From NCBI RefSeq assembly GCF_016903815.1, contig NZ_CP069973.1: a stretch of 64,000 bases of DNA; one strand, 5' to 3'. The position numbers and the translations under genes are program-made. The notes beneath the pieces are model-generated. The model had not been told where the DNA came from and ran no database searches. It saw nothing but the letters and a program-made list of their open reading frames with translations. The stretch is from Escherichia coli (GTDB lineage: Bacteria; Pseudomonadota; Gammaproteobacteria; Enterobacterales; Enterobacteriaceae). Within the stretch, counting starts at the first letter, position 1; each line of letters begins with the position of its first letter. This document shows positions 2,146 through 44,380 of the stretch, piece after piece.

Positions 2146-5100
2146 TCAGGCCAGCTCGTCCCAGATATAATCGCTGAATTTATCAAGCAGGTTGTCGAGA
2201 TTATCGTCAAAGGTTCTTTGTAGCATCGCCTTACCGCCGCGGCGGTGGAAGTTGCCGGTTTTGAAGACATCGTCGTCGAGCACCACTTTCTCTTTCAGCG
2301 CCTGCGCTAAACGATCGAGCCAGCTTAATTGCTCGCTGCTCCAGTCGTTTTCACCCTTAATGCGCGTCAGCGCGTGATCGACACGTTCCTCAAACGGTTT
2401 CAGCGCATCGCCCACCGCAGCGCGGCGAATATGACCAATCAGCCGGGCGGCGATATCTTCATTGCGCGTCTCTTTCCATGCTTTGCGCAGGGAAGATTCC
2501 TCAAAATGCTGGCGGTCAAACCACTCCTGGAGCTCGACCAGCCCTTTACGGGTGAGATCGCGCGGGCGATTGATCACCGCCTGCAATGCCGGCTGCGCGT
2601 TCGGGGAACGTTGCACCAGCGAGTCAAAGGCTTCGAGGAAATCCTGCGGCGTGTCGTAATCACCGTACAGCGATTTTACACTCACCACTTCATCGTCGAT
2701 ATCGAGGAAGATCGGCGCATCATTCAGGTTGTTGATGTCCGTTTTCAGCTTTTCCAGACGGGCGATAAAGCCAGGCAGTTTGTTAAAGACTTCGGCGCTC
2801 CAGTGCGGCCCTTTTTCCCGCAGGCGCGAGGCGAAGCCGTTAAAGTTCACGCCCGCCGCGTCCTGGCATAGCTCATCCAGACGACGCACCTGTTTATCTA
2901 TCGTTTCGCTGCGGTCACGGTTAAACGTGGCCAGGCCGATGATGCGCTGGAGCTTCGCCACCAATTGTTCATGGCTGTGCTCGGCAAAGCTACGGCCATC
3001 CGCTTCGGTGATTTTATAGGTTTCTGAATCGGTAATTTCATTGACCAGCGTTTGCAGTTCCACCTTCGGACGCACCACCACCGGACGCATGGTGTCGACG
3101 CTCTCCAGCGTGCTGTAGATATCGACACAGTCGAAAATCTTAAAGCTGGTTTTATTCACGTCCGGGCATAAGCGCGTGGCGCGGCCTTTCATCTGCTCGT
3201 ACAGAATACGGCTGCGTACTTTACGCAGGAACACGATATTACAGATCGACGGAATATCGACGCCGGTTGTCAGCAGGTCGACGGTTACCACGATATTGGG
3301 CAGCCGCTCTTTATTGAAGCGGGTGATCATGGTCTGCACTTTGCGCGCGTCTTTATCGGCATCACCGGTGATCTTGATGATCGCGTCGTGCTCCAGTTGC
3401 GGATACTTTTTCTTGAACGCGGTACGCAACTCTTCCACCACCATATCGGCATGGGCATTGGTAACGCAGAAGACCAGCGTTTTTTGCGACCCGGTCGGGT
3501 CAAGGTAGTTGGTGAGCTCGTTACAGACGGCGCGGTTAAACGCCGGGATCACCAGGCCACGGTTAAAGTCGGCGACCTCAAAATCCTGATCGTCTTCCAG
3601 GGTATCGTTGATCACTTCTCCCTGCGGGCTGATGCGCTCTACCTGTTCGCCCTTGGAGAGATAAACCCCCTCCTGGGCGTTGCGGGTGATGATCTGAATC
3701 GGCGGATCCTGGTCGATCAGAAAACCGTCGATAACCGCGGTACGGTAGGTATAACGGTAAACCGGCTCGCCGAAAATCTGCACCGTATGCAGCGCCGGGG
3801 TGGCGGTGAGGGCGATTTTTACCGCATCGAAGTGATCGAGAATGCGACGGTAGGCAGAAACGTAATCCAGCTGGCTGCGGAACTGCAGCTCGCCTTCGGT
3901 CTGCTCTTTATCGAGAATATAGCCGCGATGCGCTTCATCGACGACGATACAGTCGTAACGGGCCACCGGCATCGGTTCATCTGATTGTAGGGTGCGTTTC
4001 ACCAGCGACTGTACGGTGGCAACGTGAATTTTGGTGCTGTCTTCGGGGAATTTATCCGTCAGCCCTTTAATGTCGAAAATGCTGTTGAAGGTGTCGCCGT
4101 TAATACGCGTATCTTCAAACGCCCCCAGTGCCTGCTCGCCAAGAGAACGGCGATCGACAAGGAAGAGAATGCGTTTAAAACGCTGGGACTGGATCAGGCG
4201 GAACATCATGGCAATTGCGGTGCGGGTTTTACCGGTACCGGTCGCCATCGCCAGCAGGATCTCTTGTTGACCCTTGACGATTGCCTTTTCCACCGCGCGG
4301 ACGGCATCTTCCTGGTAATAACGCAGGCCCAGCTCGCTCATGCCCGGGTTATCGGCAAACCACTGATTCTGTTTTTGCGGTTCGCTGCCGAGCATTTCCA
4401 GCAGCTCTTCCGGGCGATGCCACTCGGGTAAGGCTTTCGACATATTGCGGGTATCACGCACGTCGCGATACCAGATGCCACTTTTAGTCTTCATTGCTGC
4501 GCGATATTCGCGCCCGTTGGTGGAGTAGCAGAAGGGGATTTTAAACCGTTGTTGGCCGCTGGTGTCCTGCCAGCTAGTTTCATACTCCGGCACAGCTTCA
4601 TGCACTTCATCCGGTGAGTAATGCTCAAGCAAGGTTTCCCGCAGGAAGCCATTATCGAAGCATTTGCTGTAGCGATACGACTCATTGAGCTTGCCGGGAA
4701 CGTCGATATTTTTACGTTTCGCCTCTACCACCGCGATGGGCTTGAGGCCGACAAACAGCACATAATCCGCAAAGCCCTGATTACCCGTTTCATCTTTCCC
4801 GGTCGGCCATTCGGCAATGGCTTTATTGACGCCGGGTTCCGGGCGTGCGCCTTTGGAGAAGCGCAGGGTTTTGCTATCGGCCTGCCAGCCTGCTTTACGC
4901 AGTTGCGCGTCAATCAGGAAGCGACTCTCTTCTTCGCTAAGGTTGAGTGTGCGCTTGATGGCCTGATCGGTAATTTCTTTGTGGTAAGCCTTACGTTCCT
5001 GTTCGGTCTGTTTGGCCAGCTCCGCGTTCTTCTCGGCGAGCTGTGCTTCCAGCGCCGCAAGGCGAGCCTGGGTTTGCGCTTCTGTTTCCTGCTGTTTGCC

Positions 5101-5658
5101 TTCCAGAATGGCGATATAGCCGTTCAGGGCAACCAGCTTCTGCTGTTGCGCTTCGACTTCTGCCTGAGTCTGCGCTTTTTCTCGCGCCTGCTGTTCAAGC
5201 TGTTGTTTTAGCGTCAGCACTTCCTGGTGATAGAGGTTTTCGCCACGTTCCGGCAACACAAATACCGGCACCGGGAAGTCATAATCTTTGGTGACCAGAC
5301 GGTAGTACCAGACAGCCAGGCGGAACCCGAGTCGCAGGCACATCTGGGCATCGTCGAGATCGTTATGGTATTCGTGCACCGCCTGGTTACCAATGCGGCG
5401 TAATTTGTGGAATACAGAGAGAATGTTGTCATCAACGAAGGCGATTTTGCCGAGTTCGCGCAGGAGATCGTGTTGATTCTCACAAGGGGGGATGTTGAGT
5501 AACAGACCAAGATGTTTCGCTGTAGCTTCGCCAAACATACGCATTTTAATCAGCGTCGTGTTGGGATCATCCGGGTAGTTATTTTCCGCCGCACAGGCGA
5601 TGGCATAAGTGAAGTCGTTGACGCCCTTCAGGAATTCGAAGTTGGATTTATTCATCAT
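2146..5658 (-). CDS. hsdR: Type I RM restriction endonuclease/helicase subunit HsdR (1170 aa)
   Basis: ORF track 1170 aa; Walker A (MATGTGKT) and DEAH-like (VVDEAH) helicase motifs; sits upstream of hsdM-hsdS on the same strand. Confidence 0.93.
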   Translation of the reverse strand: MMNKSNFEFLKGVNDFTYAIACAAENNYPDDPNTTLIKMRMFGEATAKHLGLLLNIPPCENQHDLLRELGKIAFVDDNILSVFHKLRRIGNQAVHEYHNDLDDAQMCLRLGFRLAVWYYRLVTKDYDFPVPVFVLPERGENLYHQEVLTLKQQLEQQAREKAQTQAEVEAQQQKLVALNGYIAILEGKQQETEAQTQARLAALEAQLAEKNAELAKQTEQERKAYHKEITDQAIKRTLNLSEEESRFLIDAQLRKAGWQADSKTLRFSKGARPEPGVNKAIAEWPTGKDETGNQGFADYVLFVGLKPIAVVEAKRKNIDVPGKLNESYRYSKCFDNGFLRETLLEHYSPDEVHEAVPEYETSWQDTSGQQRFKIPFCYSTNGREYRAAMKTKSGIWYRDVRDTRNMSKALPEWHRPEELLEMLGSEPQKQNQWFADNPGMSELGLRYYQEDAVRAVEKAIVKGQQEILLAMATGTGKTRTAIAMMFRLIQSQRFKRILFLVDRRSLGEQALGAFEDTRINGDTFNSIFDIKGLTDKFPEDSTKIHVATVQSLVKRTLQSDEPMPVARYDCIVVDEAHRGYILDKEQTEGELQFRSQLDYVSAYRRILDHFDAVKIALTATPALHTVQIFGEPVYRYTYRTAVIDGFLIDQDPPIQIITRNAQEGVYLSKGEQVERISPQGEVINDTLEDDQDFEVADFNRGLVIPAFNRAVCNELTNYLDPTGSQKTLVFCVTNAHADMVVEELRTAFKKKYPQLEHDAIIKITGDADKDARKVQTMITRFNKERLPNIVVTVDLLTTGVDIPSICNIVFLRKVRSRILYEQMKGRATRLCPDVNKTSFKIFDCVDIYSTLESVDTMRPVVVRPKVELQTLVNEITDSETYKITEADGRSFAEHSHEQLVAKLQRIIGLATFNRDRSETIDKQVRRLDELCQDAAGVNFNGFASRLREKGPHWSAEVFNKLPGFIARLEKLKTDINNLNDAPIFLDIDDEVVSVKSLYGDYDTPQDFLEAFDSLVQRSPNAQPALQAVINRPRDLTRKGLVELQEWFDRQHFEESSLRKAWKETRNEDIAARLIGHIRRAAVGDALKPFEERVDHALTRIKGENDWSSEQLSWLDRLAQALKEKVVLDDDVFKTGNFHRRGGKAMLQRTFDDNLDNLLDKFSDYIWDELA

Positions 5659-5845
5659 TGTTATTAATCCATTGCTGTGTGGGCCTGTCCAAATATTTAA
5701 GGCCCATAACGCCCTATCTTAGCTTTCTGTACCTTTCCGGGCAATGACCGGAGTCACAGCAACTGACTCATTTCTAACGTGTTCGTCTATTTTGGTAGTG
5801 TTATAGTAGCCGAAAAACATCTACCTGATTCTGCAAGGATGTACT

Positions 5846-41904: not shown

Positions 41905-43149
<1,245 letters not shown>

Positions 43150-43205
43150 TGGATTTGGGCGGAGCGTTGACTCCGCCTTTGTTATGTCACAAAAAGGATA
43201 AAACA

Positions 43206-43925
43206 ATGGCTACCCCACACATTAATGCAGAAATGGGCGATTTCGCTGACGTAGTTTTGATGCCAGGCGACCCGCTGCGTGCGAAGTATATTGCTGAAAC
43301 TTTCCTTGAAGATGCCCGTGAAGTGAATAACGTTCGCGGTATGCTGGGCTTCACCGGTACTTACAAAGGCCGCAAAATTTCCGTAATGGGTCACGGTATG
43401 GGTATCCCGTCCTGCTCCATCTACACCAAAGAACTGATCACCGATTTCGGCGTGAAGAAAATTATCCGCGTAGGCTCCTGTGGCGCTGTTCTGCCACACG
43501 TAAAACTGCGCGACGTCGTTATCGGTATGGGTGCCTGCACCGATTCCAAAGTTAACCGCATCCGTTTTAAAGACCATGACTTTGCCGCTATCGCTGACTT
43601 TGACATGGTGCGTAACGCAGTAGATGCAGCTAAAGCACTGGGCATTGATGCTCGCGTTGGTAACCTGTTCTCCGCTGACCTGTTCTACTCTCCGGACGGC
43701 GAAATGTTCGACGTGATGGAAAAATACGGCATCCTCGGCGTGGAAATGGAAGCGGCTGGTATCTACGGCGTCGCTGCAGAATTTGGCGCGAAAGCCCTGA
43801 CCATCTGCACCGTGTCTGACCACATCCGTACTCACGAGCAGACCACTGCCGCTGAGCGTCAGACCACCTTCAACGACATGATCAAAATCGCACTGGAATC
43901 CGTTCTGCTGGGCGATAAAGAGTAA
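43206..43925 (+). CDS. deoD: Purine nucleoside phosphorylase DeoD (about 239 aa)
   Basis: ORF track 258 aa; start set to the internal Met ([31 protein letters not shown]). Confidence 0.9.
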
Positions 43926-43957
43926 TTGTGTTTTGCTGAAAGGCGATTGCCTTGTGA

Positions 43958-43987
43958 AGCCGGAGCGGGAGACTGCTCCGGCTTTTT
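43958..43987 (+). terminator. Rho-independent terminator of the deo operon
   Basis: agccggagcgggagactgctccggct hairpin followed by ttttt. Confidence 0.7.
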
Positions 43988-44085
43988 AGTATCTATTCAT
44001 CAATAGCAACTGATTTATAGATTTACTATTATTTTTCATATGGATAGAAAATAAAATCCATTCAAGTATCTATTCACGAATCTAT

Positions 44086-44349
44086 TCATTTATGTTCAGC
44101 CGTCATCCAGGAAGGGCATATCAGCAACTCTGGTGGACAACCATAAATTTCTGCCATTTTGCTTTTGATGTTTGAGCTAAGCCGTTCCGTCTTTTCGATC
44201 TGTTTTAGAGAATTAATCGAGATACCTAACATTTTACTTACTTCAGCAAGCGATAATTTATGCCTGATACGCACGGCGGCTAGCCAGGAAATACGCTGGC
44301 TGAACATTAAATTGATAATCTCCCGTTCCTGGTTTTCCAGATCGATCAT
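44086..44349 (-). CDS. Small Xre-type helix-turn-helix protein (87 aa) at the position K-12 uses for yjjJ
   Basis: ORF track 87 aa with HTH segment LSLAEVSKMLGISINSLKQIE; ATG preceded by agggaagga; 31 bp downstream of lplA on the same strand; no kinase domain follows. Confidence 0.55.
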   Translation of the reverse strand: MIDLENQEREIINLMFSQRISWLAAVRIRHKLSLAEVSKMLGISINSLKQIEKTERLSSNIKSKMAEIYGCPPELLICPSWMTAEHK

Positions 44350-44380
44350 ATTTCCTTCCCTGGATATTTTAATCAGCGAG

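Follow-up and report, generated by a model that had tools for sequence, protein, structure and literature searches.

A short array of direct repeats lies between deoD and lplA in a 64,000-nucleotide stretch of Escherichia coli DNA (hereafter the window). Our comparative analysis indicates that these repeats are probably a conserved operator array for autoregulation of the kinase toxin HipH (YjjJ), orphaned and slowly decaying in the window genome. We consider the array an orphan operator because the adjacent hipH coding sequence has been replaced there by a 286-bp segment carrying a small helix-turn-helix (HTH) gene.

A 12-bp direct-repeat array between deoD and lplA

The window covers the deoCABD-lplA-ytjB-serB region of E. 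coli. The features of the deoD-lplA interval are listed below in window coordinates; box positions are also given relative to the relic hipH start codon, whose first base is 44092.

43206-43925, plus strand: deoD (purine nucleoside phosphorylase), the upstream neighbour, from the ORF and the annotation of identical genomes
43957-43987, plus strand: intrinsic terminator of deoD, a perfect 10-bp stem (43957-43966 / 43975-43984) followed by a T run
43992-43999, plus strand: distal box TCTATTCA, exact match, at -100, directly after the deoD terminator hairpin
44000-44056, plus strand: 57-nt spacer, the diverged remains of the hipH promoter region
44057-44064, plus strand: tandem box 1, degenerate (TCCATTCA), one mismatch, at -35
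44069-44076, plus strand: tandem box 2 TCTATTCA, exact match, at -23
44081-44088, plus strand: tandem box 3 TCTATTCA, exact match, at -11, its last three bases being the stop codon of the small HTH gene (minus strand)
44086-44349, minus strand: 87-aa HTH_3 (Xre-type) gene, an ORF with a Pfam HTH_3 match (E = 8e-7), annotated in 4068 genomes
44092-44094, plus strand: relic hipH start ATG, from alignment with the K-12-type locus L001, in which hipH starts at this ATG
44095-44380, no strand: form-specific segment of 286 bp, in the place of the 1.33-kb hipH coding sequence
44381-45397, minus strand: lplA (lipoate-protein ligase), from the ORF and annotation, the right-hand conserved flank

The mechanical deoD ORF begins at an in-frame upstream ATG (43149), and the annotated 239-aa deoD begins at 43206 (window 43149-43205). 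A simple terminator scan did not list the deoD terminator, which is known from its inverted repeat and the sequence itself.

The 12-mer AGTATCTATTCA was found again at 43988-43999 and 44065-44076, and TCTATTCA at 44081-44088, exactly where the initial annotation had placed them. As that annotation also stated, the last copy overlaps the TGA stop codon (44086-44088, minus strand) of the 87-aa HTH ORF. Its count of three copies holds for exact matches, but it overlooked a fourth copy, TCCATTCA at 44057-44064, which differs from the box at one position. The tandem boxes at 44057, 44069 and 44081 follow each other head to tail with a strict 12-bp period, and the distal box stands separately at 43992. 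An inverted-repeat scan showed that the boxes are direct repeats and not half-sites of palindromic operators. Box 1 reads TCTATTCA in K-12-type genomes and in O104:H4, and K-12, whose first tandem box is perfect, carries four exact copies. The tandem array is present in 5422 of 5426 complete E. coli genomes, once per genome and always at the deoD-lplA locus.

In the 64-kb window, the 12-mer AGTATCTATTCA occurs twice against 0.14 copies expected, and none of 100 shuffled sequences contained two or more. The count of the exact 8-mer TCTATTCA is unremarkable alone (three copies against 1.34 expected, a number reached by 17 of 100 shuffles); what is notable is that all three exact copies fall inside 97 bp. 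The consensus sequences of TorR, OxyR, ArcA, PhoB and IHF were considered as well, and none fits the 12-bp direct-repeat geometry.

Two forms of the locus in E. coli

Comparison with K-12, which the initial annotation had proposed, was decisive. The small-HTH form, to which the window belongs, is found in 4068 of 5426 complete E. coli genomes (~75%). The hipH (yjjJ) form, with the gene on the plus strand, is found in 1348 (~25%), at 1349 places, and includes K-12 MG1655. The two forms together make up 5416 of the 5426 genomes, and from these counts the window strain almost certainly lacks hipH. Alignment with the K-12 form shows that the two forms share deoD, its terminator and the distal box. 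The following 57-nt spacer is equal in length and only 44% identical, and the 35-bp array block ATTCAAGTATCTATTCACGAATCTATTCATT is identical between the forms. Homology ends after the hipH ATG (44094); from the lplA stop codon (44381) onwards the forms are again homologous. On the minus strand, the relic ATG encodes His86 of the small HTH gene, whose end CAT AAA TGA (the last two codons and the stop) is formed from the complements of the hipH ATG and box 3. The gene order deoD > hipH < lplA is common across Enterobacteriaceae, and the small HTH gene was found in no hipH locus. Since this arrangement is widespread and the small HTH gene is absent from it, we take hipH to be the ancestral occupant and the window form to be derived.

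In one hipH-form locus, that of E. coli XJ5.2 (L003, about 4139-5730), IS200C and IS1A lie between the deoD terminator and the distal box, and homology to the window ends at 43987.

In hipH-bearing species the spacer is about 57 nt long and contains a sigma-70-like pair, CTTTAC / 17 nt / TATAAA, ending just before box 1. This geometry is not recognisable in the window spacer, in which a simple promoter scan also found no plus-strand promoter-like site. When the window spacer was compared with 33 hipH spacers, the best match was 56% identical and K-12 44%, against a shuffle mean of 30% (sd 6); no close donor was found among the 33. The degree of divergence suggests that the spacer, the array and the HTH block may have come from a long-diverged lineage, the flanks having later been homogenised by recombination. 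The window spacer also contains two inverted box-like words, TCTATCCA (minus strand) at 44011-44022 and ATCTATAAATCA at 44041-44048, the latter being an imperfect inverted repeat of the distal box. These words are not 12-bp periodic and may be due to chance.

The array accompanies hipH across species

A scan based on a YjjJ alignment, with one genome per species, yielded 80 loci. The same structure precedes a hipH homologue in 32 Enterobacterales species, including E. albertii and members of Pseudocitrobacter, Leclercia, Kluyvera, Citrobacter, Pluralibacter, Siccibacter, Dryocola, Cedecea, Buttiauxella, Enterobacter, Silvania, Erwinia, Pantoea, Yersinia, Serratia and Rahnella. In these 32 enterobacterial loci, boxes with at most one mismatch lie at about -100/-35/-23/-11 from the hipH ATG, the distal box being at -97 to -100 in 27 of them. 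The 150 nt ahead of hipH contain 24.4 boxes per kb, compared with 0.146 per kb over both strands of the remaining locus sequence, an enrichment of ~170-fold. A column profile of the hipH loci shows near-invariant boxes, a moderately conserved promoter-like pair and a freely variable remainder. Within E. coli, the 44-nt array is the K-12 version in 1335 of 1348 hipH genomes, despite a divergence of hipH itself of up to 4%.

The array is retained where the upstream gene is not deoD (Siccibacter, Pantoea), as it is in Kluyvera, which has deoD at a greater distance upstream; because it is present without an adjacent deoD, the array evidently travels with hipH. More distant HipH homologues (37-43% identity) from Betaproteobacteria and other Gammaproteobacteria likewise have three AT-rich boxes, spaced at 12 bp, just ahead of the start codon. 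Many of these loci belong to GC-rich genomes, such as those of Herbaspirillum and Variovorax, and in one metagenome-assembled genome (MAG) the sequence upstream of the hipH homologue reads ATCTATTCA tttATCTATTCA caaATCTATTCA. We regard it as very likely that the boxes are a hipH-associated element. The window has four boxes in the hipH geometry, directly after the upstream terminator and with a 57-nt spacer, and the array is followed not by hipH coding sequence but by the 286-bp small-HTH segment. Since hipH has been replaced, the window array would be a relic of this family and not a working member.

Two further observations were made at these loci. In Candidatus Pantoea persica (L088), hipH contains an in-frame stop and is probably a pseudogene in a reduced symbiont genome; upstream of it, the distal box and two of the proximal boxes remain intact. 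No Shine-Dalgarno sequence can be recognised ahead of the hipH ATG (L001 2708-2745, and all enterobacterial hipH loci), box 3 ending 1-3 nt upstream of this codon. The hipH leader consists mostly of boxes, which suggests either an unusual mode of translation initiation or a coupling of operator occupancy to translation.

The winged helix of HipH as candidate reader

The product of hipH is a HipA-family Ser/Thr kinase toxin with an N-terminal winged-helix domain. No relative of YjjJ was found in the PDB by sequence, and Pfam gave only a sub-threshold MarR_2/HTH_20 match to the HipH N-terminus. In an AlphaFold model of residues 1-110 (pLDDT 93), residues 1-55 form a winged helix of three helices and a beta hairpin. 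This domain superposes on those of the ArsR/SmtB family (SqrR, HlyU, CzrA, BigR, NolR) with an rmsd of 1.6-2.2 A over 52-55 residues.

The box sequence was observed to covary with the recognition helix. Helices of the type S-Q-[A/P]-T-x-[S/T]-R are paired with an ATTCA core: 12-bp-spaced ATTCA pairs were found in 63 of 73 such loci, the other 10 having no clean pair at this spacing. The helices SPATLSR (Pantoea sp. A4, which is nested among normal Erwiniaceae) and SR[A/P]TLAR (two betaproteobacterial MAGs) go with boxes ATCGTTTCA, and DRST[I/V]TR (Rheinheimera, Alishewanella, Alkalimonas) with boxes AT[C/T]GATGCA. None of the six non-Q helices is accompanied by an ATTCA pair (Fisher p = 3e-5, uncorrected for phylogeny, with about three independent lineages).

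This match between helix and box makes HipH's own winged helix the predicted binder, one domain per box and head to tail, an assignment that we hold to be reasonably likely. In such a scheme, each winged helix would occupy one box, and bound HipH would cover the start-site and leader region and so repress its own transcription; the distal box may add cooperativity or looping. The arrangement would be the counterpart, in a single gene, of antitoxin-mediated autoregulation in type II toxin-antitoxin modules. In genomes such as that of the window, replacement of the hipH coding sequence, from just after the ATG to the lplA stop, would have left the array as an orphan operator, probably without function there, and subject to slow decay.

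The small HTH gene and the state of the array

The small HTH gene follows lplA on the same strand after 31 bp, and a Shine-Dalgarno-like sequence, AGGGAAGGAAAT, precedes its ATG. Its homologues are essentially confined to Escherichia/Shigella, with weak matches to phage and plasmid Xre-type proteins at 30-38%. NCBIfam and PADLOC searches with the protein gave generic HTH matches only, and no similarity to HipH was found. A homologue of equal length and 44% identity occupies the lplA-deoD position in an enterobacterium (L096, Logan DRR526040) whose LplA is 89% identical; the order there (864-1371) is lplA > 87-aa HTH homologue < deoD, with REP-like palindromes. No intact boxes are present at that locus, only TGAACAGA overlapping the HTH stop codon, which may be the last trace of box 3. 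In E. coli, the gene is a pseudogene in O104:H4 2011C-3493 (L008 537-800) and MS20675 (L005 525-787), one strain having an internal stop and the other a frameshift. Because both strains keep the array, the small HTH gene seems dispensable.

Several apparent homologues were set aside. P0033 (72% identity), considered as an HTH from a second species, proved to be an artefact of C-to-T converted E. coli contigs; L013 and L014 (Logan SRR13921544 and SRR18740011) are almost C-free, as in bisulfite data, and their low LplA and DeoD identities are artefactual. P0029 and P0050 are indel-bearing variants from E. coli. In L012 (3205-3306; ENA ERZ13691167), short internal duplications at the HTH 3' end extend the ORF to 101 aa and may be an assembly artefact or real slippage.

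The boxes show some signs of decay in small-HTH genomes. Box 1 reads TCC in most small-HTH lineages, the distal box has undergone two independent substitutions (AREA_505/L100; L097), box 2 is altered in L097, and MS20675 and L099 have each lost an entire 12-bp unit. In L099, a divergent small-HTH genome, ~13 of 57 spacer positions are changed and none of the surviving 24 box bases. L097 shows the opposite pattern, with a spacer identical to that of the window, diverged flanks and changed boxes. Since the locus is a recombination mosaic, as L097 and L099 together illustrate, we go no further than to say that the boxes may be under residual constraint; the L099 pattern is the strongest point for residual box function in the small-HTH form. 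Box 3 is also constrained by the stop and last codons of the small HTH gene.

Published data on the hipH promoter

Gerdes et al. (2021) described the N-terminal HTH of HipH as perhaps DNA-binding or a cis antitoxin, with no operator described (PMC8262856). The HTH has since been reported to be required for toxicity and nucleoid localisation (PMC11452175). In a ChIP-exo survey in K-12, C-terminally myc-tagged YjjJ gave no peaks at all (PMC8464067). This result is the chief counter-evidence to HipH as the reader; it could be due to low expression or to a true absence of binding by HipH.

Reg-Seq (Ireland et al. 2020) identified two repressor-type sites at K-12 yjjJ, numbered from a predicted start at 4621716 (PMC7567609 supplement): one at -24 to +18, assigned to MarA, and one at +30 to +45 without an assigned factor (PMC7567609). 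With the hipH ATG at 4621769, box 1 falls at +18 to +25, box 2 at +30 to +37 and box 3 at +42 to +49 in this numbering, so that the +30 to +45 site corresponds to box 2 and the start of box 3. The mutagenised region ends inside box 3, cutting off this site. As Reg-Seq measures mRNA, the effect seen there could also arise from the leader or from stability and not at the DNA level. The site assigned to MarA (K-12 4621692-4621734; L095 143-185) covers the hipH -35/-10 region suggested by the cross-species comparison. The predicted start at 4621716 should probably be placed about 20 nt further downstream. A search for the marbox AYnGCACnnWnnRYYAAAY with up to three mismatches found no match in the K-12 deoD-hipH region.

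In a uropathogenic strain, c-di-GMP raises hipH transcription via the promoter region (PMC11452175). As a matter of speculation, these data would fit a ligand-responsive occupancy by HipH of its own operator. No description of the boxes was found in the literature searched, and a text search for the motif returned unrelated primer sequences only. The array appears to be undescribed in the searchable literature, the principle of toxin-module autoregulation being already familiar; its direct-repeat layout together with a toxin-fused winged helix is unusual.

Alternative explanations for the boxes

Chance clustering of an AT-rich 8-mer in AT-rich intergenic DNA would agree with the 8-mer count in 64 kb, which is not significant (3 against 1.34 expected), and with one-mismatch copies across the window, which show no excess (28 against 39 expected). 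It does not account for the duplicated 12-mer, which 0 of 100 shuffles reproduced, for the strictly 12-bp period, for an array identical in two otherwise unalignable locus forms, or for the ~170-fold enrichment of boxes upstream of hipH across species. The same four observations bear out the earlier judgement that the repeats are unlikely to have arisen by chance, and the chance reading, with a probability that we put close to nil, is already refuted. The initial annotation had also suggested a relic of a recombination junction, and the array does adjoin the left boundary of the hipH-replacing segment; it belongs, however, to the older hipH region and was not created by the swap. If the repeats were scars of the exchange between hipH and the small HTH gene (target duplications, att-like sites or slippage) with no regulatory meaning, one could understand why 3 bp separate the array from the left boundary at which the forms diverge, why the number of 12-bp units differs by exactly one in two strains, as slippage would give, and why IS200/IS1 inserted beside the distal box in XJ5.2. 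Yet K-12, E. albertii and at least 30 further species, whose genomes were never subject to the swap, carry the same array with the same geometry. Moreover, no box copy, even with one mismatch, lies near the right junction at lplA (44380), and conservation across orders and covariation with the HipH helix are incompatible with a scar origin. As the origin of the repeats, a junction scar is already refuted by the hipH-bearing genomes, and we regard this explanation as very improbable.

The third suggestion made at the outset, that the repeats could be binding sites, with the adjacent HTH protein as an example of a binder, finds strong comparative support as far as an operator-type array is concerned, but the small HTH protein is an unlikely binder and HipH is the predicted one. 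The boxes could be operators of the 87-aa Xre-type protein, serving regulation at the 3' end of its gene or insulating the convergent deoD and lplA-HTH units. The protein has a genuine HTH_3 domain, its gene ends with a stop codon within box 3, most of the 4068 small-HTH genomes have retained the boxes, and in L099 the surviving boxes are unchanged beside a heavily changed spacer. Nevertheless, the boxes predate the gene at this locus and are kept with hipH in >70 loci that lack it; they lie downstream (3') of the gene, with none near its 5' end; the distant homologue in L096, at the same position, is without intact boxes; some strains in which the gene is a pseudogene still carry the boxes; the boxes themselves have undergone substitutions and deletions of units; and the small protein does not resemble HipH. 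The small HTH gene is tied to the boxes by adjacency alone, and such a role is quite improbable. We give a low but appreciable probability to the boxes being read by some factor other than HipH, such as a conserved host transcription factor, or to the three proximal boxes acting as an RNA element of the hipH leader (UCUAUUCA three times) that governs stability or translation. This would be consistent with the ChIP-exo data, in which YjjJ binding was not seen (PMC8464067), with the RNA readout of Reg-Seq and its proposal of MarA for the neighbouring site (PMC7567609), with the probable location of the three proximal boxes in the transcribed leader before an ATG without a Shine-Dalgarno sequence, and with c-di-GMP-responsive control at the hipH promoter, which could involve a separate factor. 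An RNA element is, however, difficult to reconcile with the distal box, which at -100 lies upstream of the promoter and is therefore not in the RNA, and no Rfam match at E <= 1 was found in 43700-44600. The box sequence covaries with a recognition helix encoded in cis, which argues against an unrelated factor, and the boxes persist in Betaproteobacteria, where a MarA-type regulator would not be expected. The Reg-Seq site attributed to MarA (-24 to +18) corresponds to the spacer and not to the boxes, and no marbox with up to three mismatches was found. Lastly, the array may have been co-opted in hipH-less E. coli. Its retention in ~75% of genomes would then reflect a continuing binder, for instance the small HTH protein or a HipH-type protein acquired in trans, and the occupied array would serve as a protein roadblock or would insulate the convergent deoD and lplA-HTH units from each other. 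In addition, the hipH/small-HTH dimorphism would be an old polymorphism, imported from another lineage and maintained by selection. We consider this combination unlikely. Altogether, HipH autoregulation is the favored reading of the array.

Discussion

The proposed hipH operator array resembles the hipBA/HipB system of E. coli K-12 in having several operator copies in the promoter of a HipA-family kinase toxin (PMC8262856), and in that an HTH of the same module is presumed to repress its own transcription. It differs in layout, since the HipB sites are palindromes bound by the Cro/Xre-type HipB dimer within a HipA2B2 complex (PMC8262856), whereas the hipH boxes are direct repeats and the domain predicted to read them, an ArsR-like winged helix, is part of the toxin itself. 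No antitoxin gene adjacent to hipH was found in any locus. Tandem head-to-tail short repeats, one per winged-helix domain, are known from PhoB/OmpR-type boxes and plasmid iterons. Unlike those, the hipH array has a period of 12 bp, compared with about 10-11 bp for PhoB/OmpR boxes and about 22 bp for iterons, and involves neither a receiver domain nor a replication function. Domains of the ArsR/SmtB type, for their part, normally bind inverted repeats as dimers, in contrast to the direct repeats found here. The K-12 hipH promoter studied by Reg-Seq is the same DNA, but the repeat, its binder and its conservation were not identified there, and the window lacks the downstream gene.

Like other orphan cis-sites after gene loss, the window array looks intact, has lost its cognate gene and is beginning to show decay. 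Unlike usual orphan sites, it is orphaned in the majority form of the species (~75% of complete genomes) and has partly been built into the 3' end of the replacing gene, as its stop and last two codons. What this means for the window is modest: its motif would be an orphan regulatory relic.

HipH/YjjJ is a single-gene toxin without an antitoxin gene (PMC8262856); c-di-GMP control has been placed at the hipH promoter, with neither site nor factor named (PMC11452175). The box array, with its fixed geometry and its match to the HipH helix, provides a concrete operator candidate for this control and accounts for the +30 to +45 repressor site seen by Reg-Seq in K-12. We hypothesize that HipH represses itself and that release could come from a ligand or from its phosphorylation state. 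Among complete E. coli genomes, three quarters, with O157:H7, O104:H4 and Nissle 1917 as examples, are without hipH and have kept the operator, and this hipH-less majority matters for generalising results on HipH-dependent persistence obtained in K-12 and uropathogenic E. coli.
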